IMG/VR virus record: IMGVR_UViG_3300050014_000310
Coordinates: 64,694-128,693 of that record
Source of the DNA: a virus
Strand: one strand, 5' to 3'
DNA length: 64,000 bases
In this document: positions 2,686-58,840 of the stretch, piece by piece
Position numbering within the stretch: position 1 is the first letter of the stretch
Layout of the letters: each line of letters opens with the position of its first letter
Notes under the pieces: generated by a model
What the model was told of the DNA's origin: nothing
The model's input: the letters and a program-made list of their open reading frames with translations, nothing else
Databases searched by the model: none
Made by a program: the position numbers and the translations under genes

Positions 2686-2741
2686 TTAACGCCACCCCGC
2701 TTATCAATAAGCAAAGGACACCGCATGGCTTTTCAAAGTAA

Positions 2742-2900: not shown

Positions 2901-2908
2901 CCATGCTG

Positions 2909-3391: not shown

Positions 3392-3399
3392 TTTAATTG

Positions 3400-4146: not shown

Positions 4147-4151
4147 AATGG

Positions 4152-4571
4152 TTATGATTGGAACATATTTTCCGCGAGTACCGTCCAAGTTACAAGTTGT
4201 CCCTGGGCCTGGTACGGCAAATCCGCCCTCTTCTGAAAGGCGCACCCCGTGCATTGGTTATTGTCACCCATGACCGCGCTGTCCGCCGTAATGGTCAACT
4301 GGTTCCATTCCGCAGGGTTACCTTTGAGGTAGTTGTATAGGCCCTGCAACCATTTATGAAACGCCGATGTCTGCTGAATCGCTATGGCAATCGAACCGTT
4401 CTCGCCTTCAACATCACTTGTCATAACACGGCCATCCGCCGCCACGTCCTGTACTGTACGATCCGTCGCCATACTGAAGGTGATCGTTCCAAGGCCGGAA
4501 CCGGTAGCAATGTACTGCCCATAAGCTGGATGCGAAAACACGGTCTGGAGATCCTTGAAGCTATAGATCAT
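4152..4571 (-). CDS. Tail tube protein (DUF3277-like)
   Basis: YSFKD start, VAADG, GSIAIAIQQTS; directly after sheath. Confidence 0.75.
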   Translation of the reverse strand: MIYSFKDLQTVFSHPAYGQYIATGSGLGTITFSMATDRTVQDVAADGRVMTSDVEGENGSIAIAIQQTSAFHKWLQGLYNYLKGNPAEWNQLTITADSAVMGDNNQCTGCAFQKRADLPYQAQGQLVTWTVLAENMFQS

Positions 4572-4671
4572 TGGTTATATACTCCTTTCCCAGAATTGAA
4601 AAAGCCCTGACCGAAACTGCCAGAGCCACAACCCTAATTTGTTCCCAATAGGGGATGCCGCTAATTTGTTC

Positions 4672-20337: not shown

Positions 20338-22038
20338 TTACCCCTGCTTCATCATCAAAGTTAATTCGGCAAAATGTTGCTTTTCTTCGTTGAGAATTTC
20401 TTGCAATTTTGCCTTATCCTTTTCTTCTATACTAGGAGACTGAAGAATTTGATCATAAAGATTGATAGCTTCAATTTCACCGTCTAAAGCCATTTGCAAT
20501 AGTGCCATTCTGGTCATCCCCTTAAAAACATCGTTGGAATCGGCCGCGCTGCCTTTTTTTTCGCCTAACATCTCTTTGCTTGATTGCTTCTCTTTTTCGT
20601 CCCCCAGCAGCCCCAGATCCGGCGTATCTTCCCCTGCGCCCCCAAAATCATCACTGGCCCGGGCAATATCCTTATCGCTTATACTTGTAAAGATATTTGT
20701 CGAGTAACTTAATTCATGAAGTTCAGTCAAATAATGCTTCTGGCTTATCGCCCCGTCGTTCCAGGCCTTCGAGATCGACTCCACCTTTTTCGCAACCGTG
20801 TCCGATGCCTTATCCTCGGTAGGTGTCGAAACCGGATTAAACTTGATCCCCAGATCCTTCGGTATCTTCCCAAATTCGCTCATAAACAGCACCGGGTACA
20901 GTTTGTTCAGCTTCGGTCGCAGATCCTTATTCTGCTGCTGCCCGATCATGTCTGTGTACATTTGGATGTCGGACTCACCGGTGGCGTTCATGCCGGCCGG
21001 ACTTCTCCCAAACAGCCGCGTCATTGGTATGTCGCAGGCCCCGGAAATATCCATCATCTGAGACTCGCTTATTTCTTCCAGCCCGGCAAAGGTGTAATTG
21101 ATCGCCGAAATCGTCTCACCTTCGCCGACGATCATCATGCCATTATTCGACCTCATCTGGTTCTGAGCCGATTTAATATTATAAAAGTTTCTCTGCATCT
21201 CCGGATCAGAGGCTGCCTGCAACTGGTTGAATCCTTCAACCTGGTCAACCAGTAGATTGGCCTGGAACACTAGGGACGCGATATTCCAGGATGTGGAGTC
21301 TCTTTTCAGTAACTCCTCATAAACGTGCTCCATCACCGACGATCCCCAGTAGATCTCGGCCATCTCTTCCCAGAAGGGCAGTTTCTTGCCGGTAAACCGT
21401 AGGACCCTACTATGATGCACCTTGGAAATAATCGCCTCGGATACGGTGTCCCTGACCTCGTAGAACTCAGGCATCCCGAATTCAGGGTCCCGAATATCCT
21501 TGATCAGTTCCAGCCCCGGGTAAATGCCGGACCAGCGATCCACCACCATTAAGCCACAGAACGAGCCAGGCAGGATATCATCGTAATCTAACGGCTCATC
21601 GAGTTTATCCTCGTGGCCGTCGATCATCATAATAGCGCCGGCGCCGCCATACAAACGGCCCCAGTAGAGTCCCTCGAGCAGCTTCTCTTTGACTAACGTG
21701 CGTTGCTCAAGCTTATTGATCCTGTCCGTCTCTTTGGGTTGGAGATCAGTGGTCAATGCCCAGCCGTTTTTCATCATGTCTTCGGGGACGGTGTTGACGA
21801 TCTTATTGCAGATCCAGGAATTGCGATATAGAGAATTGAGGAGCTGGTAGTTGCGAGATAAGCGGGTTAACGGATAGGTGGCGGCAGAGATAATATTCTC
21901 TGACGCGCTGCCGAGACGAGCCAGGGAATTTTGGAAGGTGTCCATGACGGTGGAGCGAACCGGGCGGACGTTTCGCTGGGTAGTTAAATTTCCGGGACGC
22001 GAGTTGGGGCGATTGACGATACCTTTTTTGGTTGCCAT
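20338..22038 (-). CDS. Portal protein (DUF1073 family) with C-terminal ferritin-like extension
   Basis: LYRNSWICNKIVNTVPEDM, WGRLYGGA, HHSRVLRF, IPMTRLFGRSPAGMNATGESD; probable start MATKK. Confidence 0.88.
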   Translation of the reverse strand: MATKKGIVNRPNSRPGNLTTQRNVRPVRSTVMDTFQNSLARLGSASENIISAATYPLTRLSRNYQLLNSLYRNSWICNKIVNTVPEDMMKNGWALTTDLQPKETDRINKLEQRTLVKEKLLEGLYWGRLYGGAGAIMMIDGHEDKLDEPLDYDDILPGSFCGLMVVDRWSGIYPGLELIKDIRDPEFGMPEFYEVRDTVSEAIISKVHHSRVLRFTGKKLPFWEEMAEIYWGSSVMEHVYEELLKRDSTSWNIASLVFQANLLVDQVEGFNQLQAASDPEMQRNFYNIKSAQNQMRSNNGMMIVGEGETISAINYTFAGLEEISESQMMDISGACDIPMTRLFGRSPAGMNATGESDIQMYTDMIGQQQNKDLRPKLNKLYPVLFMSEFGKIPKDLGIKFNPVSTPTEDKASDTVAKKVESISKAWNDGAISQKHYLTELHELSYSTNIFTSISDKDIARASDDFGGAGEDTPDLGLLGDEKEKQSSKEMLGEKKGSAADSNDVFKGMTRMALLQMALDGEIEAINLYDQILQSPSIEEKDKAKLQEILNEEKQHFAELTLMMKQG

Positions 22039-22079
22039 GTTGGTTGATCGCCCCCTTTGGTGGAAATACGAATATAAAA

Positions 22080-23399
22080 TCAAGCTGCTCGTTTGACGAT
22101 AGTTTTGACGAAGTAACGAATATCATCGAGGCAATGGTCAAATGCCTTCACAACTTCTTCCGATCCTCGCTCAGAAGCCTTCTCGTTCCACACATAAGCT
22201 GCAAACTCTTTCTTCAGGTTAGGGCATTTATCGACGTTAATTAATAGCCGACCTTGCCGCAATAATGATGATACTAACCTGATTCCTTCTATTACTTCAT
22301 GTTTTGCGTTGATCACATCGTCTGTTCCCCTAGCCCTCAGTAACTTCTTCCTTAATGCCACCTTGAACGATGCCGCCGAAGGGTCAACGATGAGAGAAGA
22401 ATATCGCTTTAATGCTCCGTTTTCGTCTTGGATGAATTTATAAACATCCTCGACATATTCAGAGTCATCTTTCTGCTGATTATGCTGCTTTGAATCGTAG
22501 TAATATTCATCTTCAACGTAGTAATATTTGATATTGGTCAATAAATCAGTCTGCTCAATGATTTCATGCATAGCAAAGGGATTTGTAGTCCCATAATCCA
22601 CACTGTACCAACGCAGGTAATATAAATCATAATCAGGGCCACCTTGGCCGGTGTGATACTGATTCTTGGGAGCAAACATATCGTAGACAATACCTTCTGC
22701 GGCACTACGCTTCCCCAGGATATCCCGAAGATACCAGACTGAGTTTTTTGCGTAAGTTATTAACGTTGTTCGTATCTTTTCAGCAGTGAATGACAGATTA
22801 TCGAATATCGTAAAATGTTCATAGTTCAGTCCATAGTTTGGATATTGATCGTTGTTTTTCTGATGCATATCCAAAATTTCAGGGTAGAACCAATGCTGCG
22901 GAGGCTTCGGGTTGAGATCAAAAAAAAGTTTCCGATCCGAAGACGAGAGTGTCCGGTCGAAAATTTCTTTAACAAAAGGCTTGGCGCAATCATTGACTTC
23001 TGTTGCGTAAACGGTCCCATAAGTGTTGCCATGAATCGATTTTTCGTCGCCGTCCTTGCCTCCGCCGGAGATAAGGATTATCTTCTCTCCGGTCTTTGTG
23101 GAGACATAGAGGCAATCCCGGTTTTGATACTTACCTGGATGCGAACGCCCCTCAAACCAATTGGCAACGCCAAAGCCATTGCAGTCAATTATGTTAAGTT
23201 TTGCTGATGCCACAGAGAAGCCAGATGCCAGGTGGAGTTTGTCAGGATGTGTCTCCAGACATTCGCACCATGCTATGATGTTCAGGACATTTTTTCCCGC
23301 TCTTTTTCCACCTTCTGCTATATTTAACCAACTTTTGTATGATCTCTTCAGGTAATTAACTTGTTTCTGGCAGAACGCAGCATATTCTGGCATGATCAA
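22080..23399 (-). CDS. terL: Terminase large subunit
   Basis: AEGGKRAGKN Walker A, DLNP, VDYGTTNP, VDPSAASF, DHCLDDIRY. Confidence 0.92.
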   Translation of the reverse strand: MIMPEYAAFCQKQVNYLKRSYKSWLNIAEGGKRAGKNVLNIIAWCECLETHPDKLHLASGFSVASAKLNIIDCNGFGVANWFEGRSHPGKYQNRDCLYVSTKTGEKIILISGGGKDGDEKSIHGNTYGTVYATEVNDCAKPFVKEIFDRTLSSSDRKLFFDLNPKPPQHWFYPEILDMHQKNNDQYPNYGLNYEHFTIFDNLSFTAEKIRTTLITYAKNSVWYLRDILGKRSAAEGIVYDMFAPKNQYHTGQGGPDYDLYYLRWYSVDYGTTNPFAMHEIIEQTDLLTNIKYYYVEDEYYYDSKQHNQQKDDSEYVEDVYKFIQDENGALKRYSSLIVDPSAASFKVALRKKLLRARGTDDVINAKHEVIEGIRLVSSLLRQGRLLINVDKCPNLKKEFAAYVWNEKASERGSEEVVKAFDHCLDDIRYFVKTIVKRAA

Positions 23400-37878: not shown

Positions 37879-39105
37879 TTAGTCACCGCCTTTCAACATC
37901 TCAATAACCTGGGAGCACATATCGCAAGCACATCCACCGCCGCATTTCAGACGCCGCTCTCTGGCATGCCTTAGCGCCGTCATTTCCCTGTCAGTGAAGG
38001 GAAGAGGCAGATCATCGTTGCGATGTTCAGCAGCCAGGGATGTTTGCAGCCGGGCGATCTCTTCTTCCTCGGCGATAAGCATGACGTTCAATTCATGTGC
38101 AAAGTTATTTGCTTTTTCAAAGTTGTTCTGTGAAAAACGGAGTTCTTCTTTGATTTCCGCGATCTCGGTTTCTTTAGCGGCGATCGCGGCTACCATCGGA
38201 TCAACCGGTTCCACGTATTCCGGAAATTCCACTGACAGGCGTCTCACAGGCTTGCCATGAGCCACGGCGTAGTCGATTTCTGAGCGGGTAGAGTCTCCGA
38301 TGTAGCCATTCACGTCAAGCACCCATACCCAGTCGCACAAGTCAATTTTGCGCTTATGCAGGGCGTCCAGAAATGCCTTGGTTGCTTCGTCCGGATATTG
38401 CCTCTCATGATGCCCCCATAAGCCGACAGCCAGGACGATGTTACCCTCACCTGTTAGCCGGGCGTTCTCGGCTATCCATGTCTGCTTGAACCTGGTAGAA
38501 CCGCATAGGCAGACGATAGGCGCAACGAAGCGGGCATCCTTGGCGGCGATCTCTTCTCGCTGCACCTGGATCAGCCCGATGGCCTGGCGGTACTGCTCGC
38601 TCCGGCATGTGAGATCTTGCTGCAACTTGCGATTCTCGTTCTCCACTTTCTGATAGTCACACAGGGCCGGCATAATTGCCTTGACTTCTGCACTATGCCC
38701 CTCGAATTGCTCAAATAGTTGATGCTTTAGGTCTGCAACGTGTGATACGGCTTGCAGTTTGCCGCTTTTCGCCTCCCTTAAAACTCTACATCCCTGGCAT
38801 CCCTGACTCTCTTGCCTTGAGCAGCTATCCAGGTCGCTGCCAAACTCCTTGTAGCAACTTTCCGGGACAGTCACGGCCAATTTATACTGTGGCAGCAGAA
38901 TAGGGCGGAACGCGTTGCCATCCTTGTCGGCGACGGTGGTAATCTCATAAGCGCACGGATCAACATTCTTGCAGTCGTCAGGATTGGTACAATCCGGGTT
39001 GGCTCTTGCTGCTTCTTTGGCATCTTCTTTGGTTTCAGCGGCCACATGACAAGCGCATTCCAACTCACAATACCTACTTGTGCAGCAGATATGCCATAAT
39101 TTCAT
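37879..39105 (-). CDS. Multidomain protein with nucleoside-deoxyribosyltransferase-like domain
   Basis: VCLCGSTRFK..LHKRKIDLCD..GYIGDSTRSEIDYA..GKPV. Confidence 0.65.
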   Translation of the reverse strand: MKLWHICCTSRYCELECACHVAAETKEDAKEAARANPDCTNPDDCKNVDPCAYEITTVADKDGNAFRPILLPQYKLAVTVPESCYKEFGSDLDSCSRQESQGCQGCRVLREAKSGKLQAVSHVADLKHQLFEQFEGHSAEVKAIMPALCDYQKVENENRKLQQDLTCRSEQYRQAIGLIQVQREEIAAKDARFVAPIVCLCGSTRFKQTWIAENARLTGEGNIVLAVGLWGHHERQYPDEATKAFLDALHKRKIDLCDWVWVLDVNGYIGDSTRSEIDYAVAHGKPVRRLSVEFPEYVEPVDPMVAAIAAKETEIAEIKEELRFSQNNFEKANNFAHELNVMLIAEEEEIARLQTSLAAEHRNDDLPLPFTDREMTALRHARERRLKCGGGCACDMCSQVIEMLKGGD

Positions 39106-39793
39106 CGTTTTTCGCTCCCCTCAGAATGCATAGTTATTCATCCTCAAACATATTTACTTGCCTAGTTGCCTTCCCTTTCGGCGTCAATGTCACGATCCAC
39201 GCCTTCCCATCGCCATCCTTGACCTCGGACACCTCTTGGACGAGTCTGCCTGCCTGCCACGCATCCTTGGCGTTTTGAGCCGCATAGGGGGTGATGTCGA
39301 GGGCGATGCCCGGGGTGGTAAAATAGAGTTTCATCCTGCCAAGTCCCCCCAATATTCCAGAATGATCATCTGCAACTTTGCTATGTACTCCTTCAACTGC
39401 CCATAGGACGTCCTGTTTGCCTCTCTGACCCTGGGATCATCGTACTTGGGGCATTCCCTCACCAAGACCATTTGCATCCCTTGAACCTTCCTGTGCAGTC
39501 TCACGGGCATATTTTTTGGCTTGGTGGTGAGGTCGTAGAATCCCGGCGTTGGCGTGTAGGGAATATTTGGTCTCACTATTTTCATGCCTCTGCCGCCCCC
39601 TTTGTGCATATTGCACTGTCGCTCTCCGTCGCATAGTACTCGTAAATCCCTCGCTGCTCGATCTCGGATACCTTCAGCCTGATCAGCCCCGGGTGCTTCT
39701 TTTCGATCTGCTCGACCGCCGTCTCCCTGCTGGCTGCGACTACGCGCCCCATGTGGCAGATGACGTATTCTTGGTTCATATTGCCACACTCCA

Positions 39794-40492
39794 TCATACG
39801 AACATCCTTTGCTGTGCCGTTTCTTGGGCTATACGCTTTTGCGCTAGGGCCGCGTATTCGGGAGATATTTCTATGCCGATGTAATTCCTGCCTGTGCTTG
39901 CAGCCGCTATTGCCGTTGACCCACTTCCAAGGAATGGATCGCAAATCGTTTGACCTTTTACGCTAACATCACGGATCAACTTTTCCATAAGAGGAACGGG
40001 CTTTTCGTTTGGGTGCTGGAGTTTTTCTGCATCTACCCTTGGCGAACGAACGATTGATTGTGGTCTATGATTCGGAAACTTGAACAGTCCTTTTGTGGCG
40101 AACCATACAACGTCATGCTGTAGAGCGTATGCGCCCTCTAAATCCCCTAAGCCGTGTACTGCCCTATCCCATATCACCTGAGACTTGATCGTGAATCCTG
40201 CCCATTCTATTGCTTGCTTGAAGGCATCCTGTACATCCCACCGGCAGAAACAAAGCAATGATCCGGTTAGTTTTGTAATGCGATAAGCATCATAGAGCCA
40301 CCAGATAAACGGGAGTTTGTCGTTGGCGATCTTAGGCTTCAATTGCGTTTTATCAATCCGCCAGGCGGATTGATAATCTATTCCATATGGAGGATCGGTC
40401 ACAAAAGAATCGATACTGTTGTCTGGCATCTCCCGCATGACTTCCAGGCAATCTCCGCATATTACTTTGTTCAGCCAGCGATCCATGTTCAT
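39794..40492 (-). CDS. DNA N6-A/N4-C methyltransferase (beta class), orphan
   Basis: GDCLEVM, TDPPY, HPNEKP, DPFLGSGST, GIEIS. Confidence 0.9.
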   Translation of the reverse strand: MNMDRWLNKVICGDCLEVMREMPDNSIDSFVTDPPYGIDYQSAWRIDKTQLKPKIANDKLPFIWWLYDAYRITKLTGSLLCFCRWDVQDAFKQAIEWAGFTIKSQVIWDRAVHGLGDLEGAYALQHDVVWFATKGLFKFPNHRPQSIVRSPRVDAEKLQHPNEKPVPLMEKLIRDVSVKGQTICDPFLGSGSTAIAAASTGRNYIGIEISPEYAALAQKRIAQETAQQRMFV

Positions 40493-40711
40493 GCCTCACA
40501 CTCCCTCAGTTCAATTGTGCCGCCCCACAGATCCCAGCAGGCGCCACCGTCAGGCGGCGGTTGATACTCGATCCCGTGATTCTCGCAGGTTTTGGCGACC
40601 ATTCGTTCGTTGATCACCATGCCATAGGGGATATCGTTGATTTCGCAAAAACGTTTGATCATTGATTCGCTCGGTTCTTCATCATATCGGTTTTTGATGA
40701 ACTCTTTGTAT

Positions 40712-41221
40712 TCATTGACTGTCATAGATATACTCCTGCATATGCTTTATGCTTTTTATCTTGCCATCATATTTAGAATGGCAGGATCGGCACATTCGCT
40801 TATAATCAGCGGGATCTTCATAATTACCGGTGAGATTTGCCCAATCATATCCTTTGCTTGGATCTGTTGTTCCGCATATTTCGCATTTTTGCGGTTTGCC
40901 ATAAAGCGCATATAGCCTCTTGTGCAAAGCAACATAACAAGAATTTGAACCTTTCCATGATTTTTTACGACCAATATCTCTTTTAATCTCTATTCTTGGC
41001 TTGTATTGATTGCGCCGAAATGTTTTGAGTATAACCGTTTGCGTTGTTCCCAGGGCTGCACCAACTTCTGATTGAGTCATGCCTGATTCGTATAGCCTCT
41101 TAACGTCTTCAAAAGAAATCGGGTACATTCGCGCTTTTACAGTGCATTGCCTTGAGCAGCATTTTGCTTTCGAATTATAGCTAATAAATTGCTTACCGCA
41201 TTGCTGGCAGATATGATTCAT
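40712..41221 (-). CDS. HNH-like endonuclease
   Basis: WKG..YVALHKRL..GKPQKCEICG..YDWAN..MCRSCHSKYD. Confidence 0.7.
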   Translation of the reverse strand: MNHICQQCGKQFISYNSKAKCCSRQCTVKARMYPISFEDVKRLYESGMTQSEVGAALGTTQTVILKTFRRNQYKPRIEIKRDIGRKKSWKGSNSCYVALHKRLYALYGKPQKCEICGTTDPSKGYDWANLTGNYEDPADYKRMCRSCHSKYDGKIKSIKHMQEYIYDSQ

Positions 41222-42720
41222 GTGGACTTACTCCCTTCTCGGCAAAGAACGATCTAACCTCGGCGCAGGATGTAAAGCGGGCGCGGACGGTGGTGGTGGT
41301 GTCGGTCATGATGCAGCACCCCTCTTGCAATAAACTGGGAGCGCGTTACCATCTCCATTGCAACTGCAACAGGGGACCGGCTTCTGATCTTTTAATGCCC
41401 TGGCGATTGTCCATGTATGAACGGTAAAATGTTTGCCGCATGTTTCACAGCGCACAACCACCTCTGAATTGCGAATCTCAAAGGCGTGCAGTCGCTTCTC
41501 CACCGCATGGCCATAGTCGCTGTATTTGAGGTCGTTTGTTTCCGTGCCATCTGGGAAAATTCGTTCAAACAGAAGCGCAAACTTTTGTTTTCCTTGTGTT
41601 TCTAATCGTCTCGATGTTGTAATCATCTTTAACGCTCAACTCCTTCACTCTGGCCGCCAACTCTGCATTCTCGGCCATGTAGATCCTCAATTTTTTGAGG
41701 TAACGCCCCTCTCTCGCCAGGGACATGTAGTAGAGGCGCTGGTAATCCGTCGGTTTCGCTATGATGGGACGGTGAGCGGTCAGCATTGTCGTGATCTCCT
41801 TGCATAATCCTGGTTGTCATTGGATACACTAGACTGGGGTATTATGTGCTTTCCCGTGAGACGATAAAAAATTATTCCTTCTGTGCAGTTTCAGCAGAGA
41901 TCCCCTGAATTACATCGCTGGCACAGAACCGGCTCCTTTCCCTTCAGGGCATCCTCTCCCCCGCCGGGTACCCAGCATAACCGTTTGCACTTCGGACAGG
42001 GCACCTGCTGCGTCCAGTGGGCTTGATGACCCCGTGAGTTCACTGGGTATCGCTCTACGAGGGGAAGCACGACGGGATAGGCGGTCATGGCGTGACCTCG
42101 GTGATGTCTTCCGGCTGCACCCTGACGATTTGCCCGTAGGATACGGCTACCAAGTAGACATCGACGTGCTTCGTGCAGATCCATCCGTATGCCTGATCCG
42201 GGGCGCCCCCATCCGTATAACCTGACTGCAGTTGTCTAACTCCGGCAATGATGCCCTCGCCCTTGCAATCGACTCTAATGACATCTTTATCTCGCCAGGA
42301 ATTGTGTTTGCATTGGCGTTCTGATATTGCCGTGAAGCTCACTTGCTGGCCCATGGGGAGCTTATCTTTGATCATGGCGTGGGCTCGGCAACTTCGGGCG
42401 CATTCTCCTCGGCTAGTTGTTTCTCAATTTCCGTGCCGCATTTCTGGCAAACTACCTTGTTCCCTTTGATGGTGAACATCAACCCCATGCGTTCCCCATC
42501 CTCGAACTTCTTGTGGCATAGAAAACAGTCGAATCCTTTGTAGCGCATATTGCCTCTGATCCGTCGCCAAGCGTTATTGAACGCACAAAAATCAACTATA
42601 ACGTGCGTAATCTTATATGTGGTTGTGGTGGTTCGTGTCTTGGTAATCTCGGGCATCTCCGTCTCTCCTCTCGATGAAAGTATCCCGGCAGCCCCCGAAG
42701 AGGCCACCGGGTTAGCAGGT

Positions 42721-49956: not shown

Positions 49957-50052
49957 ATGGAATCCTTCTTTATGGTGATCGGAATTGTCTGTGCTGTGTC
50001 ATTTATCGTGATGTTGATAAGAAAGATATTTTGTAATGACGATGGCGAATGA
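49957..50052 (+). CDS. Small membrane peptide (31 aa)
   Basis: RBS AGGAGAGG; MESFFMVIGIVCAVSFIVMLIRKIFCNDDGE. Confidence 0.45.
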   Translation: MESFFMVIGIVCAVSFIVMLIRKIFCNDDGE

Positions 50053-50082
50053 AGATCTGATCCCCTACCAAGGAGGCAACCC

Positions 50083-51258
50083 ATGCGCGGCAGCATCGCC
50101 AAAAAAGGTAATCGTTACTACGTCATCCTCGACCGGTACGTCAACGGCGCCCGCAAGCCGAAGTGGATCCCCGCCGGCGCATCCCAGGAAGAAGCCGACG
50201 CTAAACTGATCGAGATCAACCATGAGATATTGATCGGTGAGTTTATCGATCCATCCACCCTGACCATCGAAGAATACCTGAAGAAATGGTATGGCTACGC
50301 CCAGCCTGATTTGAGGGAGAAGACGCAAGTGGATTACGAGTGGGCGATCAAGCACATCAATGAGCACCTGGGTAGGGTGATGATCTCCAAGTTGCAACCG
50401 CTCGACATCGAAGAGATGGAAAAGCGGCTTCGGAAACCAGAGGGAACGCTCGGGGGCACCTCGGCTAACAATCTTCATGGCGTGTTCCACATCGCGCTGC
50501 GGCAAGCCGTCAAGTGGAAGATAATCAAGACGAACCCCTGCGATGCCGTGGATGCGCCGAAGAGGGATAAATTCCGGCCTGTCGTGTTGGATGAAGAACA
50601 ACTGGGGTTATTGCTGGATGAAGTGGCCGGCACGGAGATGGACCTGCCAGTGAATGAGGGGCTTCAATGCGGCATGCGCCGGGGGGAGATCTCCGGCCTC
50701 TGGTGGGAAGATGTCGATCTGGAGAAGAAGCAGATCCATATCTGGCGTGCCCTGGCGATGATCAGGGGTAAAGTCAAACCAAACGATGTCAAAACTGAGG
50801 ACAGCGAACGGACGATCATGCTGCCGGAGGACCTTGAGCAAATGCTCAGGTGCGAAGCGCGAAAGCAGGGATACGATGTTGATGATGATGTGGGGGATCT
50901 GATCCAGGAAGCAGAATTTCTGCTGGGGAAGCAGAAAAAGATAAACCGGCCGACCGGTTACGTCTGGCGCCGGGATGATGGGCTGCCGTACGGTCCGAAT
51001 TACCTTTATAAGCATTTCAAAAAGATCATGACCAAGCTGGGCCTTCCTGCCATGCGCGTGCACGATCTGCGGCATTCCTTTGCCACGTTTCTGCTGCTCA
51101 AAGGTGTTGATATAAAGATAGTAGCGGCTATTCTTGGACACAAGCGAGAGGACTTTACCCGGCACACATACGAGCATATATTGCCGGCAATGCAGCAGCA
51201 GGGAACAGACGCAGTGAATGGCCTGATTAAGAAAGCCAGGGAGAAAAAGGAGCGATAG
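50083..51258 (+). CDS. int: Tyrosine integrase with arm-binding N-terminus
   Basis: GMRRGEI (R), VKT (K), HDLRH, LGH, TYEH (Y). Confidence 0.95.
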   Translation: MRGSIAKKGNRYYVILDRYVNGARKPKWIPAGASQEEADAKLIEINHEILIGEFIDPSTLTIEEYLKKWYGYAQPDLREKTQVDYEWAIKHINEHLGRVMISKLQPLDIEEMEKRLRKPEGTLGGTSANNLHGVFHIALRQAVKWKIIKTNPCDAVDAPKRDKFRPVVLDEEQLGLLLDEVAGTEMDLPVNEGLQCGMRRGEISGLWWEDVDLEKKQIHIWRALAMIRGKVKPNDVKTEDSERTIMLPEDLEQMLRCEARKQGYDVDDDVGDLIQEAEFLLGKQKKINRPTGYVWRRDDGLPYGPNYLYKHFKKIMTKLGLPAMRVHDLRHSFATFLLLKGVDIKIVAAILGHKREDFTRHTYEHILPAMQQQGTDAVNGLIKKAREKKER

Positions 51259-51289
51259 AATGTTCTATTCTGCTCTTGTCTTTGATGAC

Positions 51290-51325
51290 CATGTTAGAAG
51301 AATGTTAGAATCCGGGGCGTTAGAA
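51290..51325 (+). repeat. Integrase arm-type sites, left arm
   Basis: TGTTAGAA at 51292 and 51303 (11-bp period), GTTAGAA at 51319. Confidence 0.75.
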
Positions 51326-51359
51326 AAGGCTCCCGGAACCCCGGAAGCCTTGGCAATTC

Positions 51360-51409
51360 TGGTGGACGTGAGGGGACTCGAACCCCTGACCTCCTGGATG
51401 CGAACCAGG
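51360..51409 (-). tRNA. 3' fragment of tRNA-Ala(CGC), att core
   Basis: Minus strand CCTGG-TTCGCAT-CCAGG AGGTC AGGGGTTCGAGTCCCCT CACGTCCACCA: anticodon arm, T arm, CCA; no 5' half. Confidence 0.88.
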
Positions 51410-51708
51410 AGGACGCAGCGAAGATCCTGGCCAAAGATAAGACCATCAAGGGCAGCCTGGATGAGATGCGGAAAGAGGCCCGAAAGCAATCATCCGGCGA
51501 CTGCGCCGTGCTGTCCGATCCCGAAGGTTTTGCGATCGTGCTCAAATACTACGGCATCGAGGGCAGCGCTTCCCCGAGGCCTGCAGAATCGGTGACTCCG
51601 GCAGAAGCAGCTCCAGCACCGGTCCAGGAAGCTGCAGCTCCGGCGCCGCCGGTCCAGGAAGCAAAGAAGAGCGTCAGTTTCGACGTCAATCTGGATGACC
51701 TGTTGTAG
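51405..51708 (+). pseudogene. 3' part of a PcfK-like gene
   Basis: QEDAAKILAKDKTIKGSLDEMRKEARK..CAVLSDPEGFAIVLKYYGI..FDVNLDDLL; no proper start; continues the frame of 56055-56830. Confidence 0.8.
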
Positions 51709-51711
51709 GGG

Positions 51712-53271
51712 GTGGCGCCAATGATATCAAGAGATAGAAAATGGCTGGAGCCATACAAGCCTTACGCTGCAGTAATCACTCCTGGCGCCGAGCAGTATGC
51801 CACCGACGCCGCTCTGCTCGCAAGCCGGTACATATTCACTGAGCGGATGGGGAAGAAGCAGTGGGCATACTGCACTCACTGCCACGGGGGATTTACTCCC
51901 GATGAAACCCTGAAGCACAACTCCGTGGCCATGTGCCCGCACTGCTTGAGCGCATGTATGGTCAAGGCATCCGGGCGCGGCCACTCGTACATGATCGACC
52001 AGACCTACTTCCTCCACTATGATAAGGTGCCTGCCAACCCTGATGCCATCGTGGCCAGGGGGATCCATGCCATCCGGGACTACAGCAGAAACTACAGGAA
52101 TGTTGAGACCGAGTATATCGTGCTGGCATACTACGTGTTCGAGCCGGGCCATGCTGCCATGATCAGAAATCGGTATGGCGAATGGGAGGTGGCAGCTACG
52201 GTCTACACGCTCCCTAAATACTATAGCGCCTTTCCAAGCTCCTACTCCCGGGATAGTGTCGAGGCCGCAGTGGCCGGGACTCCGTTCCGCTACAGCACAT
52301 GGCAGAAATACGACCTAGGCGACATGACCTCATTTTTCCACTTGGCTGCCAGGTACCCTTGCGTCGAATACCTCACGAAACTGGGGTTCAACCGCCTAGT
52401 TGAAGGCAAGATCTGCAATGATATGACCTACAACGCCATCAACTGGCGCGGCAAAAACGTCCTGAAAGTGCTCCGGATGACCAAGCAGGAACTGAACGAG
52501 ATCCGGCGCCAGAAGGTCGATGTGGGCTATGGATTTCTCGAGGCTCTGAAATGCTGCAAGGCGGCCGGCTGGAACCTGACAGTCCAGGAAGCAGTCTCGC
52601 TGGCCAGTGACTTCGGTAATTCGTATGGATTCGAGCATTTCAAGAAATTCCTGGCGCATGACGTTATAAAGAAGATACCGGTCAAAAAGGTTCTGCGCTA
52701 CCTGGACAAACAATATGCCCGGGACAAAGAGCACTATTCATCAAAAAGCAACGTGACCATCACCTGGCGCGATTACCTCGAGGACGCCAAAAGGCTACGG
52801 ATGGATCTGAAATCGGATAATGTGCTCTATCCCAAGAGCGTCTATACCATCCATCAGAACACGCTTACCCAGCTACGGATTAAGGCTGATGCAAAGCTCA
52901 ACGAGCAGATTGCGAAGCAGCTTGAAGAGCTCAACAAGAGATACTTCTTCGAGCATGGTGGACTCAGTATCCGACCGGCGAAGGACACTCTGGAGATGAT
53001 CAGCGAGGGAGAGGCGCTGAACCATTGTGTTGGCAGGTATGGCATTAACTATGCCAAAGGGCAGACCGTCATCCTCTTCGTGCGGAAGACTGACGAGCCG
53101 GACAAGCCCTATTACACAGTCGAGGTTCGCCCGGGTGACAAGGAAGTTTTCCAGATACATGGCAGGCATAACCGGCCACCCGGGCAGGATGTTGAAGAGT
53201 TTATCAAGGCCTTCACGGATGAGAGGCTGGCCAAGAAGAAGGAGCAGGAGCGCATCAGAATCCCGGCGTAG
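51712..53271 (+). CDS. PcfJ-like protein
   Basis: CTHC..CPHC; WRDYL; EGEALNHCVGRY..ILFVRK..PYYTVEV..QIHG..N. Confidence 0.85.
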   Translation: MAPMISRDRKWLEPYKPYAAVITPGAEQYATDAALLASRYIFTERMGKKQWAYCTHCHGGFTPDETLKHNSVAMCPHCLSACMVKASGRGHSYMIDQTYFLHYDKVPANPDAIVARGIHAIRDYSRNYRNVETEYIVLAYYVFEPGHAAMIRNRYGEWEVAATVYTLPKYYSAFPSSYSRDSVEAAVAGTPFRYSTWQKYDLGDMTSFFHLAARYPCVEYLTKLGFNRLVEGKICNDMTYNAINWRGKNVLKVLRMTKQELNEIRRQKVDVGYGFLEALKCCKAAGWNLTVQEAVSLASDFGNSYGFEHFKKFLAHDVIKKIPVKKVLRYLDKQYARDKEHYSSKSNVTITWRDYLEDAKRLRMDLKSDNVLYPKSVYTIHQNTLTQLRIKADAKLNEQIAKQLEELNKRYFFEHGGLSIRPAKDTLEMISEGEALNHCVGRYGINYAKGQTVILFVRKTDEPDKPYYTVEVRPGDKEVFQIHGRHNRPPGQDVEEFIKAFTDERLAKKKEQERIRIPA

Positions 53272-53289
53272 CCGGAAGGAGGAATAAAC

Positions 53290-54273
53290 GTGAGCGTGAT
53301 CGCCATAGAGAGAACCCCGAACCTTATAGCTGCGGAGATCAACGACATCAAGGGGCAGACCCGGACCATGATCCTCTATAGCAGCATCGAGATCGGCCGG
53401 CGCCTGGTCGAGGCCAAGGCGATGATCGACCACGGGGAGTGGGGCAACTGGCTGGAGCAATCGGTTGATTACTCCAAGAGCACGGCCAATAACCTGATGA
53501 AAATATTCGAGGAGTACGGCACCGATCGTACCAATCTCCTCGGCCATACTTCAAATCTCCAAGCGCTTGGAGATTTGAGTTACACGCAGGCGGTAGCACT
53601 CTTAGGCATCCCCCGGGATGAGCGGGAGCATTTCGTCGAGGATCACGACCTTGAGAGCCTTTCCACCCGGGAGTTGCAGAAGGCCATCAAGGAAAAGCAG
53701 GAACTCGAGCGACAGTTGGCAGAGGCCGAGGCCGGCCTTCGGGAAAAGGTGAGGCAAGAGCAACTATTCGAGGAGAAGCTGACCGAGGCGGAACAGCAGA
53801 CAAATTTGGCGGTCAAGCAAGCCCAGAGTGCCGATCGGGCAATCAAGGCCAAGGAGCATGACATCGACCTCTTGCACGAGAGGATCACAGGACTGACGGA
53901 GCGACTTGAAACCGCCCAGGCTGCCGGCAATGACGATGAGGTGGCCACACTCCGGGAGCAGCTCGCTGAAGCTAACAAGGACCTGACAACATCCGCTGAT
54001 CGCATCGATGAACTCGAGGCCCAACTCAAGGCGAAGCCGATCGAGACCACGGCCACGACGGTCGAGGAGCGGATCCCTGAGGACGTGCAAAAGGAGCTGG
54101 CCGAACTCCGGAAGCAGAGCCCGGCGGTCGTCAGATTCAGGGCACACTTCGATGCCCTAGTGAGCGGATTCCAGAAGCTGCTCGAGGACCTGGCCGAGAT
54201 GCAGGGATTAGATCATGACAAATATCGGGGCGCCGTGAGCGGACTGATCGGCAAGATGTCGGAGAGGCTGTAA
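53290..54273 (+). CDS. DUF3102-domain protein
   Basis: IEIGRRLVEAKAMIDHGEWGNWLE..STANNLMKIFEEYG; LSYTQAVALL; STRELQKAI. Confidence 0.85.
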   Translation: MSVIAIERTPNLIAAEINDIKGQTRTMILYSSIEIGRRLVEAKAMIDHGEWGNWLEQSVDYSKSTANNLMKIFEEYGTDRTNLLGHTSNLQALGDLSYTQAVALLGIPRDEREHFVEDHDLESLSTRELQKAIKEKQELERQLAEAEAGLREKVRQEQLFEEKLTEAEQQTNLAVKQAQSADRAIKAKEHDIDLLHERITGLTERLETAQAAGNDDEVATLREQLAEANKDLTTSADRIDELEAQLKAKPIETTATTVEERIPEDVQKELAELRKQSPAVVRFRAHFDALVSGFQKLLEDLAEMQGLDHDKYRGAVSGLIGKMSERL

Positions 54274-54288
54274 AAGGCGTGTGGTTAG

Positions 54289-54723
54289 GTGCCGCTGGAG
54301 CGACTAGAACCCACACGGGAGGAAGATATGAAACTCTACCACTTCACAGCGAATCATTTTGTGCCTGAGATAAAGCGTAGCGGGCTGACCCTGGGGATGT
54401 TCCCGATACTTGACGAGCATGGGAACCTGGTCCGGATGCTGGATAAATGGCAGTGGCTGACGGATGAGCGCCGGCCGGAGGAGCAGAGCTGGGCGACCAG
54501 CGAGGGCCTGGAGTACAGCCGGACGGAGACCAGGCTGACGATAGCTATCCCTAAGTCGCACCGGTACCAACTGCATAAGGCTCGGGACTTGCCTAAATAT
54601 CGGTGGCCGTTCCCTAAATCGGCATGGACGATTATCACGGACTGGTCAGGAAGCGAACACTGGTATGTATACTTCGGGAATGTACCATCCGGATGGATCA
54701 GGGAGATTGAAGCTACAGCTTAA
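54289..54723 (+). CDS. Hypothetical protein, possible ADP-ribosyltransferase-like fold
   Basis: LYHFT....I...GL and WLT motifs; probable start MKLYHF. Confidence 0.4.
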   Translation: MPLERLEPTREEDMKLYHFTANHFVPEIKRSGLTLGMFPILDEHGNLVRMLDKWQWLTDERRPEEQSWATSEGLEYSRTETRLTIAIPKSHRYQLHKARDLPKYRWPFPKSAWTIITDWSGSEHWYVYFGNVPSGWIREIEATA

Positions 54724-54728
54724 GGCTA

Positions 54729-55568
54729 TTGGGGGCAGGAGAATTGGCGAGACAGCGCTTTATACATCCCGAACTATGGACAGATCCAACGGTAGGACAA
54801 TTACCACCGCTCGAGCGTCTTCTTTTCATCGGTTGCTTCTCAAACGCTGACGATGAGGGGCGACTCCTTGGCAACCCAGCCTATCTGAGATCGACGGTCT
54901 TTCCCTATGACGATTTCACCATCGACCAGGTGCGGGAGATGCGGGATCACGTCATTGAGCACTGTAAAAACATCATTCTCTATGAGGCCGATGGTCTTGA
55001 ATACCTGGCCTTTACCAAGTGGGAGAGATACCAAAAACCTAAATACGCCAAGTCTTCCAAGCTGCCTGTACCGCCCGAGAAAAATAATGGAGAAAGCTTT
55101 CTCCAAAATGGGGGAAAAGATGGAGAACATTTGCCGGAAGACTTACTCCCTAGATTGGGTAGGGTTGGGTTGGGTTTGGATCTAGATAGGGTTGGGTTGG
55201 GTAGGGATGAGATTCCGCCGCCCACCCCTGACGATGACCAGTTGTTTATAGCTGAACTGAAACAAATACTGGCCTACCCCTTCGACGAGCAGAAGGACTC
55301 AGAAAACTTGAAACAATTAAGGGCGGATTTCCCAACGCTGAACCTACTGTCGGAGGTCAAGGCCTGGCGCACATACAAGCGGGACAAGCCGCTAAAGAAG
55401 GATTCCAACCCACGCTTGCAGTTCAGAAAGTGGTGTCAGATATCCCTGGAGAAACTGGAGAAGGAGGCACAAGCTCATGAAACCCATGTCGGAACTGATA
55501 CGAGACCTGCAGCAGGCTCAGCTCAATCGAAATACCCGATGCACTTCGAAACCGGAGACACAAGCTGA
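54729..55568 (+). CDS. Phage replication initiator
   Basis: ARQRFIHPELWTD..RLLFIGCFSNADDEGR; precedes the DnaC-like gene. Confidence 0.75.
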   Translation: MGAGELARQRFIHPELWTDPTVGQLPPLERLLFIGCFSNADDEGRLLGNPAYLRSTVFPYDDFTIDQVREMRDHVIEHCKNIILYEADGLEYLAFTKWERYQKPKYAKSSKLPVPPEKNNGESFLQNGGKDGEHLPEDLLPRLGRVGLGLDLDRVGLGRDEIPPPTPDDDQLFIAELKQILAYPFDEQKDSENLKQLRADFPTLNLLSEVKAWRTYKRDKPLKKDSNPRLQFRKWCQISLEKLEKEAQAHETHVGTDTRPAAGSAQSKYPMHFETGDTS

Positions 55569-56076
55569 TTGCCCGTTCTGCGGCGACAAGGGCATGGTGC
55601 TCCGGGAGCGCAACGGGGAATGGTATGCCAGCCCCTGCCGATGCGTGGAGCAAAAGGCGATCGAGCGGATGATCGAGACCTCCGGCCTGGACGATAACGA
55701 GCGGGAAATCCGGCTGGTGGACTTCAACGTGACGAAGAGCACGATTGCCATGTTCAAGGCGGTGCATAAATACCTCGAGGAGTTCCCGGAGCTTTACAAA
55801 TCCCGGGCGATCGCAAAGGGGTTGGCCCTGGCCGGCTGGGTGGGCGTCGGTAAGACGATGTTGGTGCAGGCGATTGCAAACGAGTTCCTGGACCGGCGGA
55901 TCCCAGTAGTCTTCGTAGTGACCCCGGCCCTGATCGGTGAGCTCCGGGCTTCACAGTTCGAGCCTGGCGGCCGTGCGCTTGAAGAAAAGATCGAGGCGCT
56001 CTCTGCTGTCGAGGTGGCCATTTTCGATGATGTGTCCAAGGAGAGCGTGACCGAGTGGGTGCAGACTTCTGGGTAG
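55477..56076 (+). pseudogene. DnaC/IstB-like helicase loader, 3'-truncated
   Basis: CPFC..PCRC, GWVGVGKT, IFDDVSKE..TEWVQ then an abrupt stop; the usual R..T(T/S)N C-terminal part is missing. Confidence 0.8.
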
Positions 56077-56834
56077 AGCCTGATCTGTGCAGTGCCTGTG
56101 TGACGCTATATTGCAGTAAAGCCAAGAAATATGATACCTGCCCTGAGCAGCCGGACTGGAGCAGTTGCTGGAGAGAGGGAGAGCCCTGCAGCTATCTCAA
56201 GTGGAAGCCAAGTGGCCTGACTCCGGAAGAGCAGGAAGCGGATGACGCCGAGCACCAGGCGGCATATGAGCAGGAGATCGCTGAGCAGGGCGCTGCGGTC
56301 AAGGTTGGGCCGGACCAGGAAGTCGTTACCCAGAAATATTACTGTGATTACTCAAGCCCTCACCATAGACATTGTTTATGCCCACCTGAAGTAAGTCCAA
56401 CAGACGACCAATGCGCTACGTGCCCTTTCCTGAAACCTTGCTGGCCAGATAGCTGCGAAGTCTGCGATCCGACAGACGGATCCCCTATCGTTTGCGGTCC
56501 GAAGTGCCCACATTTCGAAGACAAGCCCAAGCCGGTCCAGGAAGAGGAACCGGTCCAGGAAGCCGCAGCTACTCCGGAGCCCGAGCAAGGCGAAACGCCG
56601 GTGGTCCAGGAGCCCAAACCAGAGAAGAAGACCAGGGCGAAGAAACCTGCACCGGAGAAGGTAGCACAACCGGTCCAGGAGACACCGGCAGCTCCGGCAC
56701 CCCAGGTCCAGGAAGCCACCGGCGATCCGCTCACTGATGCGATCGCCAAAATCAAGGCTGAGATGGCCGAAAAGGTCAGCAGCTACACCAAGGTGATCGG
56801 TAACTTCCTGCTTGCGCACCTGGATGCGAATTAG
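56055..56834 (+). pseudogene. 5' part of the PcfK-like gene, apparently 5'-truncated
   Basis: Cys-rich region, PVQE repeats, AIAKIKAEM..YTKVIGNFLLAHLDAN ending in the att core. Confidence 0.75.
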
Positions 56835-56933
56835 AATTTTGCGCTTTTACCGGATTTTATATGCCCTGAAAGGTTTGATAAATAAGGATTCATTGTTGGC
56901 CATCCAGGTTGCTCCACTCTGGAATGTGACGCT

Positions 56934-56955
56934 CATGTTAGAAGTTTGTTAGAAG
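56934..56955 (+). repeat. Integrase arm-type sites, right arm
   Basis: TGTTAGAA at 56936 and 56947, same 11-bp period; CATGTTAGAAG identical to 51290-51300. Confidence 0.75.
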
Positions 56956-56967
56956 CATGGATAGGAG

Positions 56968-57117
56968 ATGGATTGGATGCTCATCGTCGCCTTGGTACTC
57001 GTCGCATTGGCATCACTGGCCACGCTCTATGAACTGCGCTATCGTCAGCAGAAGGAGAGGGAGATCGAGGACAAGAAGGCTATCGTCAGGATCGTCCGCC
57101 ACTGGTTCAGCCGGTAA
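56968..57117 (+). CDS. Small membrane protein (49 aa)
   Basis: RBS AGGAG; MDWMLIVALVLVALASLATLYELRYRQQKERE.. Confidence 0.45.
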   Translation: MDWMLIVALVLVALASLATLYELRYRQQKEREIEDKKAIVRIVRHWFSR

Positions 57118-57181
57118 TGGAAGCCATAGGCATCGTTGTAATCCTGGCGTTCCTTCTGTCCATCTTCAGCGATGATGATCC

Positions 57182-57373
57182 CTAATGCAGCTTCTTCAGC
57201 GTCTTGGCAAGGTTGGCCTGCTTCGCTGTTGTCGGGTTGCTGCTGTTGGCGGCTTTCTTCAAAAACGCCGGTTTGATTGTTCCAGCCTTGGTCAAGCCTC
57301 CGGCCACCTTCGCTTTCTTGGCCAGAGCTCCAGGATGCTTTGAAACGGCCTTCTTAATCCAATTTCCTGCCAT
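57182..57373 (-). CDS. Small Lys/Ala-rich basic phage protein
   Basis: NWIKKAVSKHPGAL..ANLAKTLKKL; RBS AAGGAGG. Confidence 0.7.
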   Translation of the reverse strand: MAGNWIKKAVSKHPGALAKKAKVAGGLTKAGTIKPAFLKKAANSSNPTTAKQANLAKTLKKLH

Positions 57374-57386
57374 GCGCTTTTCCTCC

Positions 57387-58730
57387 TTATATGAGTTTGT
57401 ATTGCCTTAATTTGTGATACCTGGTCAACGGCAGCCGGGGATCGTCCTCCTCGTCGATGTCATCCCGGGCGTACTTGGTGGCGCAATGGAATTGGAAGAA
57501 CTTTTTCCGCAGCTCCGCAAAACTTCCTTCCGGGTTCTCGCCGGTCGCCGTGATGATCGCTATAGCATCGTCGCCGGTGGTCATCAGCTCCCCGCTTTTC
57601 ATGTAGCAATCCCATAACCACACATCGGGCATCATCTCTGCCGGGAAGTCGATCATCTGGTCTGGTGTCTCTGAATCGTTGAACAGGCGCAGAGAGGTCG
57701 CTACCTGGTCTGTGGCGAATGCTTTTTCGGGATCGAGCTTGCCGTCCATGTAGCCAGCCAGGAACTGCCCTACGTCGATCTTCAGCAGGGCAAAGGTGGA
57801 GAATATCGCATTATAGCCGAAGCGCGAGCCGCAGACCTCCAGCGCCCAATACTTGTCCAGGGAGTGATCGTAAATCACCGATATATCCAGAAGCCCCGTG
57901 CCGATGTTCTTCGCTGCGTATGCGTCTAGCTTTGCGTTCGTGGCCATCCTCAGCGGAGAGTCCGGCGGCAGGATGGCGTCGATCGAGAAAGCGCAGCCCG
58001 TTTGAACCTCGCACATCGGGTTGTACTTCAATTTATCCTCAAGGTTGAGGCAGCAGAGAACCGGTTTGCCTTCGTAATACCATGTTTCGATGGCGATCTC
58101 CTCGCCGGCCACCTTCTCCTGAAGCAGAAAGGGCTCCGCGTCGATCAGCTTCGCCTCGGCGGTAAGTTTCTGGATCAGTTCGTCGTTTGAATCGCTGGCC
58201 ACCTGAGTAACCACAGCCGGGTTATCCGACTTCAGCACATACAGTTTATCGGCATTCTTCTGCAAGAACTCAATGGCTTTCTTGCTGCTTCCCTTGCCGA
58301 ACTCCTGCTGCTCCGGGATATCAAGGCCGGACTTGCCCAGGACCCGCAGTGTGGCATCGCGGTCCTTCTCCAGCTCATAGCCTACCTTCGAGCCTCCAAG
58401 CACCAAGCAGCCCTTCTTACGCAGCGCTTCGGAGAACTGGCTGCCGTATATCTGATCGAAGATGTAATAGACCCCATCGCCCTTGTGCGCCTGCTTGACC
58501 ACATCAGAGGCCCATACCTTATCCACCAGGCCGGTGCCGTTCTGGTCCAGGTATTTCATTCTCTTGGCCCATTCCTTGGATTGCTTCGCGTCCCTTGCTG
58601 CCACGATCTTGCCGGTTTTCTCCCACGGTTTGATCATGGCCAGTTTAACCTTGTATCCTTCGTATTTCAGCCGTATTGCAATGGCCAGGCCTGAATGATC
58701 GGCGGTGAAGATGATGAACTGTTTTTTCAT
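57387..58730 (-). CDS. ATP-grasp enzyme, PurD/GARS-like
   Basis: Probable start MKKQF; GGSKVGYELEKDR, YVLKSD, LLQEKVAGEEIAIE, ALEVCGSRFGY. Confidence 0.75.
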   Translation of the reverse strand: MKKQFIIFTADHSGLAIAIRLKYEGYKVKLAMIKPWEKTGKIVAARDAKQSKEWAKRMKYLDQNGTGLVDKVWASDVVKQAHKGDGVYYIFDQIYGSQFSEALRKKGCLVLGGSKVGYELEKDRDATLRVLGKSGLDIPEQQEFGKGSSKKAIEFLQKNADKLYVLKSDNPAVVTQVASDSNDELIQKLTAEAKLIDAEPFLLQEKVAGEEIAIETWYYEGKPVLCCLNLEDKLKYNPMCEVQTGCAFSIDAILPPDSPLRMATNAKLDAYAAKNIGTGLLDISVIYDHSLDKYWALEVCGSRFGYNAIFSTFALLKIDVGQFLAGYMDGKLDPEKAFATDQVATSLRLFNDSETPDQMIDFPAEMMPDVWLWDCYMKSGELMTTGDDAIAIITATGENPEGSFAELRKKFFQFHCATKYARDDIDEEDDPRLPLTRYHKLRQYKLI

Positions 58731-58840
58731 CAGTTGCTCCTTTCCACATCTCCCGGCTCCGTAATCACCGGATAATTGCATTCATCGCAGAAGTTATCGA
58801 AGGGATCGCAAATGAGGCAGACAATCGGGCATTTGGTCAC
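58730..58840 (-). CDS. Cys-rich acidic peptide (36 aa)
   Basis: Read manually: GTG overlaps the upstream TGA and its own TGA overlaps the next ATG; MTKCPIVCLICDPFDNFCDECNYPVITEPGDVERSN. Confidence 0.5.
   Translation of the reverse strand: MTKCPIVCLICDPFDNFCDECNYPVITEPGDVERSN

Follow-up and report, generated by a model that had tools for sequence, protein, structure and literature searches.

How can a gene come to lie in two pieces, C-terminal part first, at the two ends of a block of DNA that itself interrupts a phage attachment site? The question is raised by the 64,000-nt window analysed here, which is the right half (bases 64694-128693) of the 128,693-bp IMG/VR virus record IMGVR_UViG_3300050014_000310. 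The attachment site, called attP2, adjoins the tyrosine integrase gene int2, and the pieces at the two ends of the 5,426-bp block (51405-56830) make up an AcrIIA9/PcfK-like gene. Our analysis makes it probable that the integrase Int2 recombined attP2 with a 17-bp mimic of a tRNA anticodon arm located in this gene in another element, and that one illegitimate join followed. Coordinates are those of the window unless given as contig coordinates, which refer to the whole record; features are collected in Table 1.

A conserved gene divided between the two ends of the block

The open reading frame (ORF) holding the N-terminal piece ends with ...NFLLAHLDAN and a stop codon at 56834, and the C-terminal frame reads QEDAAKILAKDKTIKGSLDEMRK from 51406 and terminates 4 nt before a PcfJ gene. 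Rejoined as ...CAC CTG GAT GCG AA/C CAG GAG..., the two pieces are in frame. A word-indexed search with the N-terminal piece returned one relative, P0002, in which NFLLAHLDANPGDATKILAKDKTIAKSLDEM is read without interruption. Searching exhaustively with P0002 recovered 425 cluster representatives at an expectation value (E) of 1e-3 or below, most of them about 120 amino acids (aa) long and covering P0002 residues 118-241. When 28 homologues were aligned with the two window pieces, the domain was unbroken in 28/28 and the pieces met between HLDAN and QEDA. BLASTP placed the pieces in exact abutment on all three full-length homologues, at residues 225/226 of P0004, 378/379 of P0015 and 151/152 of P0002. 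Since the abutment is exact and the homologues are contiguous, the gene was interrupted midway through a conserved domain and the two halves became circularly permuted, no residue being lost or repeated. A coding repeat, PVQE (CCGGTCCAGGA, families D1-D4), is present in both pieces.

A first-pass annotation, made from the sequence alone, had called this gene pcfK-like. By Pfam the label is weak: P0002 reaches 18.8 bits with PcfK (PF14058), where the cut-off is 27, matches at E<=1e-3 were obtained for 4 of 30 family members, the window pieces themselves gave no match to Pfam PcfK, and NCBIfam held no family for the split gene. The name rests more on the synteny with PcfJ and on the RefSeq naming of homologues as AcrIIA9. 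A tblastn comparison of a short member with plasmids yielded 8 records, 5 of which are annotated as 'Cas9 inhibitor AcrIIA9 family protein' in RefSeq. In the annotated plasmid loci the AcrIIA9-family gene lies directly upstream of PcfJ (3/3), DUF3102 coming next in 1/3, and the gene order of the window matches these loci once the two pieces are read as one gene. Cas9 inhibition is the putative function of the AcrIIA9 family; in this phage, at all events, the gene is in two pieces.

The attachment site attP2 and its tRNA-Ala core

The 12-mer CCTGGATGCGAA stands exactly at 51393 and at 56819 and bounds the block, with a third exact copy at 23134. Allowing at most 1 mismatch, 6 matches were counted in the window for 0.38 expected, a number reached by none of 100 shuffles. 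The left copy is part of a tRNA-like stretch. Read as its reverse complement, 51360-51409 comprises a CCA end, the acceptor strand, the T arm, the variable loop and a complete anticodon stem-loop with the anticodon CGC; ARAGORN found no whole tRNA in the window. A 27-mer taken from this stretch matched 10 loci in a species-level genome collection, all of them complete tRNA-Ala(cgc) genes in metagenome-assembled genomes (MAGs) of Bacillota, 3 of which are labelled Syntrophomonadaceae. Identity extends over 50/50 nt in 10/10 loci, after which the loci run CACTCTCCC and the window runs AGGACGCAG. In all ten the anticodon arm reads CCTGG-TTCGCAT-CCAGG, the very sequence on which the first-pass annotation had staked its proposal beforehand. 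The host is proposed solely from this tRNA identity.

The last 5 nt of the tRNA-Ala fragment (CCAGG) double as native codons of the captured gene, and the 17-bp sequence CCTGG-ATGCGAA-CCAGG stands complete at the left junction (51393-51409). On the far side, the second copy of the crossover repeat is followed by TTAGAATTTT and then by a pair of TGTTAGAA arm repeats. This motif occurs four times in the window, always within two pairs of 11-bp spacing (1.23 expected; 5 of 100 shuffles reach 4), and both pairs are contained in a 38-nt direct repeat whose copies are 76% alike (family D7). An attP is recognised by an adjacent tyrosine recombinase gene, a tRNA-identical core and arm repeats on both sides, all of which were found at attP2. 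Judged by its sequence, module 2 (int2/attP2) appears to target a host tRNA-Ala(CGC) gene, with insertion into its anticodon loop.

The direct repeat, arm repeats, tRNA-Ala 3' fragment, restored reading frame and PVQE repeats listed by the first-pass annotation are thus each present in the sequence. It had also taken the 17-bp sequence to be restored by circularising the block; the sequence is indeed there, but it needs no restoring, as it is already whole at the left junction.

An internal comparison is offered by the other integration module of the record, int1/attP1, which is intact (L014:1923-3355, contig 39923-41355). It is made of int1, a pair of TAGCACCT repeats, a tRNA-like fragment and another TAGCACCT pair, the first two copies lying 12 bp apart directly after int1. 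The attP1 fragment comprises a T arm and an anticodon arm with loop TTACCAA and anticodon GGU (Thr), and the Rfam tRNA model gives it 21.9 bits, under the cut-off of 29 (E 0.038). Measured from the anticodon loop, the arm repeats lie at -126/-114 and +119/+131 in attP1, and at -106/-95 and +106/+117 in attP2 minus the block. As the two layouts are the same, the phage carries an unbroken attP of the design proposed for attP2. With at most 2 mismatches, the tRNA-Thr-like fragment of attP1 was found in 0/5 and 0/73 genomes, the 73 belonging to the family in which the tRNA-Ala target occurs, so the two modules may serve different hosts. A host fitting both attP sites was not found in the genomes searched.

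Besides the two copies at the block ends, one exact copy (23134) and three 1-mismatch copies (4525, 7865, 13511) of CCTGGATGCGAA lie inside structural genes, 4 copies where codon shuffles of the window gave 0.54 expected and 0/300 reached 4. They were considered as further att sites and rejected, since their flanks show no likeness and the remaining 64.7 kb of the record are free of such copies.

At 56960, one of the metagenome runs described below (X1) has a further short contig that joins the phage sequence but differs from it to the left of that point. The branch lies just after the arm pair of P' and just past the start codon (56957-56959) of a 72-aa ORF, and it may correspond to a variant phage in which other sequence replaces the att region.

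A pattern of reciprocal exchange between attP2 and the gene site

With the block removed, attP2 reads ...GACCT CCTGG ATGCGAA TTAGA..., and the site in the rejoined gene reads ...GCGCA CCTGG ATGCGAA CCAGG AGGAC.... To the left of the common 12 bp, the hybrid attL carries tRNA/phage sequence and the hybrid attR carries gene sequence; to the right, attL carries gene sequence and attR phage sequence. Both reciprocal products are present and no base was gained or lost. This hybrid pattern points to an exact, reciprocal and conservative site-specific recombination between attP2 and the gene site.

The gene site resembles attB beyond the part that attP2 shares with it. Right of the loop, the tRNA and the gene site both have CCAGG, where attP2 reads TTAGA, a further 5-bp match to attB with a chance of about 1 in 1000. 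In the gene, CCAGG is native coding sequence (N-Q-E), and Q-E-D is also found in P0004. The first-pass proposal that an attP had been split by DNA recombined at a tRNA mimic in another element's gene is therefore supported by the split gene, by the reciprocal junctions and by the intact attP1.

The second joint of the block

A second discontinuity lies at 56067/56068. The DnaC-like helicase loader on its left ends with ..DDVSKESVTEWVQT, then SG and a stop codon (..EWVQT/SG-stop), and its match to the NCBIfam loader profiles (269 positions) breaks off near position 198, leaving the AAA+ module incomplete. A 51%-identical homologue in L031 runs on with ..SEWVQAQYFRIIDNRY.. (QYFRIIDNR followed by Y or F), and the in-frame translation of a loose contig end at 56067 is QYFRIIDNRF. 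Right of the joint, the AcrIIA9-like reading frame begins in mid-domain, at FWVEPDLCSAC. P0004 and P0015 carry CRVCGCTDDHAC...(Y/S)W(V/L)EPDLCS, the CRVCGCTDDHAC part of which is missing from the window gene, and P0015 has 228 more residues upstream of its aligned part. The overrun of the loader profiles and homologue, together with the headless frame, indicates that a tail-less gene is joined here to a headless one. The captured DNA being a deletion derivative with a second joint, the event needed two steps.

Proposed course of events

The donor would have been another mobile element, the DNA coming from the early/replication region of a phage or phage-plasmid. In it, attP2 would have recombined with the secondary site CCTGG ATGCGAA CCAGG, inside the conserved domain of the AcrIIA9/PcfK-like gene. 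Strand exchange within the shared 12 bp would yield two hybrids, one composed of P, the core and the 3' part of the gene, the other of the 5' part of the gene, the core and P'. Illegitimate recombination would then have joined a point in the neighbouring dnaC-like gene to a point in the AcrIIA9-like 5' part, after which only 5.4 kb of the other element would be left in the phage. The likeliest order would thus be integration, then aberrant excision or deletion. The order cannot be told from the sequence; integration first is preferred because it requires no short-lived intermediate and follows a classical route. Aberrant excision from secondary-site lysogens is, in the lambda literature, the classical origin of specialised transducing phages.

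Junctions in public contigs

Parts of 50000-58000 were found as Logan contigs in four peat-metagenome runs (X1-X4), X3 and X4 covering only parts of this region. The right junction is spanned without a difference by single contigs in X1 (56038-56989) and X2 (56544-57359). The left hybrid is carried by X1 contig 51380-54358, which opens with 13 tRNA-specific letters and continues into the gene piece with 0 differences; as under 31 of its letters precede the junction, it was not counted as a bridge. Public contigs thus carry the junctions that the first-pass annotation had proposed, the left one unbridged. X1 shows a depth of 32-34 for the flanks and 35-40 for the block, X2 about 3-5 and about 4-5, respectively. 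The block depth equals the flank depth, so the block is present once per phage genome.

Several points weigh against the proposed course. The left junction has no formal contig bridge, contigs breaking in a 52-nt stretch that is common to host tRNA genes; its depth is 141 in X1, and each of the four runs has loose ends beyond 51409 with tRNA 5' halves that resemble the MAG ones. X1 is possibly the source sample of the record, and X2 belongs to another study but to the same habitat type. The second joint is clear only in X1, X2 contig 55507-56067 continuing into a full-length form of dnaC. Contigs skipping the block (empty attP2) or closing a circle were absent from the four runs, contigs being prone to drop rare forms. 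The collections searched contained close relatives of neither the phage, int2 nor the block, and neither a lysogen nor an intact donor gene with the exact 17-bp site was found. Finally, we infer Int2 as the enzyme, the 7-nt loop as the overlap and the order of the two events.

Alternative explanations

The strongest competitor, which we consider possible although clearly less likely, reverses the two steps: illegitimate recombination would first have made a 5.4-kb circle of donor DNA, perhaps a brief small replicon, and Int2 would have inserted it at attP2 through the mimic. The final structure would be identical. The donor breakpoints are just 5.4 kb apart, and the block has a replication initiator gene with TTGGG repeats inside it at 55150-55213 (two 32-nt units, in frame, family D11), which by their sequence look like an iteron-type origin. 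This course requires, however, two rare events and a short-lived intermediate; the truncation of the helicase loader makes self-replication of the circle doubtful; and the circle junction was not seen in the contigs of the four runs.

It is improbable that the block is an Int2-dependent hitchhiker, i.e. a mini-replicon equipped with an initiator and an origin of its own, parked in the spare attP and riding in every virion or, equivalently, that two-module phages use one attP to capture circular DNA with an anticodon-arm-like sequence. We give marginally less credit still to an evolved capture system, in which attP2 and Int2 would form an integron-like platform, as the first-pass annotation had suggested among its interpretations, or the block would be a dedicated Int2-dependent cassette or satellite parked in attP. 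The likeness to an integron attI/attC system is that an integrase gene, outside the inserted DNA, adjoins the insertion site of a promoter-poor gene block, and the block depth equals the phage depth in two runs. Yet there is a single insert, no attC or attC-like site was found, the repeats are of the arm type of a phage attP, and the integrase is not of the IntI type (int2 scores 56.8 bits with the integron-integrase model TIGR02249, whose cut-off is 265). The site is located centrally in a conserved protein domain, and the closing joint truncates two genes. Conservation of the mimic, raised as a question in the first-pass annotation, was checked as well: the equivalent 17-mers share just 8-11 of 17 bases in 4/4 distant homologues, so the mimic is not kept. 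The idea of integron-like capture finds no support in these observations.

A chimeric contig of phage and other element is very unlikely. The record is a metagenome assembly, and its left junction falls in the host-tRNA-shared 52-nt stretch where public contigs break; but the 12-17 bp common to phage and gene are too few to misdirect an assembler, and the hybrid contigs recur in the independent Logan assemblies of X1 and X2 with 0 differences and even depth. We attach just as little weight to an integrase-independent insertion through microhomology (template switching) in which the 12-bp identity served fortuitously. Such an identity could act as microhomology, and the window has four further near-matches to the 12-mer. 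Against this, both junctions coincide exactly with the anticodon-loop position in a core that is derived from a tRNA and adjoins an integrase gene, the exchange is exact and reciprocal, and the gene site has CCAGG, in which it agrees with the tRNA but differs from attP. An intramolecular or dimer event of a single phage genome was rejected, as its topology bars direct-order hybrids 5.4 kb apart without int2 or an intact gene between them.

Comparison with known systems

Integration of attP2 at the mimic by Int2, followed by one illegitimate join, is closest to the lambda type of secondary-site integration with aberrant excision, with which it shares a heterobivalent integrase, an attB-like site, hybrid att sites and one illegitimate join that carries flanking DNA along. 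Laboratory lambda phages with two att sites exist alongside the specialised transducing phages. The carried DNA is chromosomal in lambda-type transducing phages, whereas here it comes from another mobile element. Unlike the lambda-type case, both flanks and the whole phage are kept here, so that attL and attR both stand in the packaged genome. The present case is a natural one and no laboratory construct. Two features of specialised-transduction-type capture, namely a hybrid attL and attR with exact reciprocal exchange and an illegitimate joint bounding foreign DNA, were found at this locus. The mechanism is a variant of the classical one, unusually completely preserved.

Imprecise excision that packages neighbouring DNA is described in a 2026 review (PMC13492144). 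The Islander paper counts 2083 islands with an anticodon-centred attP (PMC4383910). In its account of class A, attP contains a tRNA 3' part that begins at the anticodon loop and extends to the 3' end, with crossover at the loop (PMC4383910), as is the case here. The crossover at attP2 falls where, according to the same account, anticodon-centred integrases are considered to cross (PMC4383910). The partner of a class A site is a tRNA gene; here it is a protein-coding gene with a 17-bp mimic.

Prophages that integrate into prophages are reported in Escherichia coli by Nakamura et al. 2021 (PMC8112680). There too, as that report presents it, a phage integrase uses an att sequence inside the genome of another phage (PMC8112680). 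The attB sites it describes in E. coli are host-derived copies at effector loci, and the nested prophages are whole (PMC8112680). By contrast, the site here is a chance mimic within a gene and only a 5.4-kb remnant is found, inside the integrating phage.

Genes near phage att sites are widely attributed to faulty excision, an event whose traces are hardly ever preserved in full. In this packaged phage genome the two hybrid att sites, the two halves of the donor gene and the illegitimate closing joint have all survived. The record thereby places the crossover of an uncultured integrase within 12 bp that include the anticodon loop, and it shows what an off-target site needs, i.e. the 7-nt loop and both 5-bp arms of the stem. 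It also documents one phage carrying off part of the replication and anti-defence region of another element, and a phage that can afford to lose one attP while keeping a second integration module. The principle is classical; the value of the locus is that of a clean natural example, together with a ready-made pair of substrates for testing Int2.

Content and origin of the block

Between the two gene pieces, the block encodes a PcfJ-like protein, a DUF3102 protein, a 144-aa product, a replication initiator and the truncated loader (Table 1). Its composition marks it as atypical for the phage and of foreign origin: its tetranucleotide usage correlates with that of the remaining phage DNA at 0.72, while other windows give 0.847 +/- 0.049 and 2 of the 57 fall lower, and its guanine-plus-cytosine content is 0.558 against 0.507. 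Contigs of X3 and X4 are 95-99% alike to the part holding the 144-aa ORF, initiator and loader (54329-56067), those of X4 having no depth on the phage flanks, and X1 shows an extra depth of 5-8 over the same interval. From this extra depth and the flank-free X4 contigs, a relative of the replication part lives in peat without the phage.

Searches for relatives were extended to several collections. In viral contigs, P0002, int2, PcfJ, the ATP-grasp neighbour and a 33-mer of the tRNA core gave no useful relatives. Metagenome contigs yielded nothing useful for P0002, and for the DnaC-like protein relatives at 51% (L031) and 24% identity only. The block compared as DNA with phages and plasmids, and P0002 and P0005 compared with phages, returned nothing useful. 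Among the 73 genomes of the tRNA-holding family, the best match of int2 was 37% identical and P0002 had 0 matches; tblastn of int2 on the 10 tRNA loci gave no match.

The phage record and its two integration modules

The source of the window is a large temperate peat phage, a myovirus of about 129 kb with two tyrosine-integrase/attP modules. The record is classed as linear, with a CheckV completeness of 92%. Scans with PHROG profiles detected a single contractile-tail structural module and assigned replication and DNA-metabolism genes to the left half of the record. Nearly all phage genes lie on the minus strand, except for two plus-strand islands with one tyrosine integrase in each. The two integrases are 27% identical. 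The int2 translation shows RRGE, HDLRH and LGH...TYEH, which we take to be the tyrosine integrase motifs.

Table 1. Coordinates of the att region, the block and other phage features (window positions unless marked as contig)
Feature	Position	Strand	Remarks
int1, tyrosine integrase	contig 39923-41086		plus-strand island, outside the window
Sheath	4672-6189		PHROG scan; protease, tape measure and baseplate also in the structural module
Portal	20338-22083		PHROG scan
Terminase	22080-23399		PHROG scan
int2, tyrosine integrase, 391 aa	50083-51258	+	Pfam PF00589 4.7e-19, PF14659 3.7e-8
P arm of attP2	51273-51325	+	TGTTAGAA at 51292 and 51303; third GTTAGAA at 51319
3' part of tRNA-Ala(CGC), CCA end to 5' strand of anticodon stem	51360-51409	-	50-nt identity
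Left 12-bp crossover repeat (anticodon stem strand and 7-nt loop)	51393-51404	+	hybrid attL
C-terminal 100 codons of split AcrIIA9/PcfK-like gene	51406-51708	+	aligns with P0004 226-315, P0015 380-477, P0002 154-241
PcfJ-like gene	51712-53271	+	PF14284 2e-37
DUF3102 gene	53290-54273	+	PF11300 4.9e-54
ORF, 144 aa	54289-54723	+	no family match
Replication initiator gene	54729-55568	+	phrog_1408 2.6e-19
DnaC/DnaI-like helicase loader, 3' end cut short	55477-56076	+	phrog_50 4.2e-26
Illegitimate joint closing the captured block	56067-56068		contigs branch there in X1, X2 and X4
Headless N-terminal part of split gene	56068-56831 (ORF called 56055-56834)	+	aligns with P0015 229-378
Right 12-bp crossover repeat	56819-56830	+	hybrid attR; contigs of X1 and X2 span it
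P' arm of attP2	56831-56954	+	TTAGAA adjoining the core; TGTTAGAA at 56936 and 56947

Two other features of the record were noted. To the right of the att region, at 58837-63855, a gene encodes a 1672-aa protein with an LPD38 domain (PF18857, 1e-25), and an ATP-grasp-like gene (57387-58781) lies alongside it. A collinear partial repeat relates window 38878-41297 to contig 1197-4817, with patches that are 87-98% identical and a 169-aa ORF that is 100% identical between the two copies.

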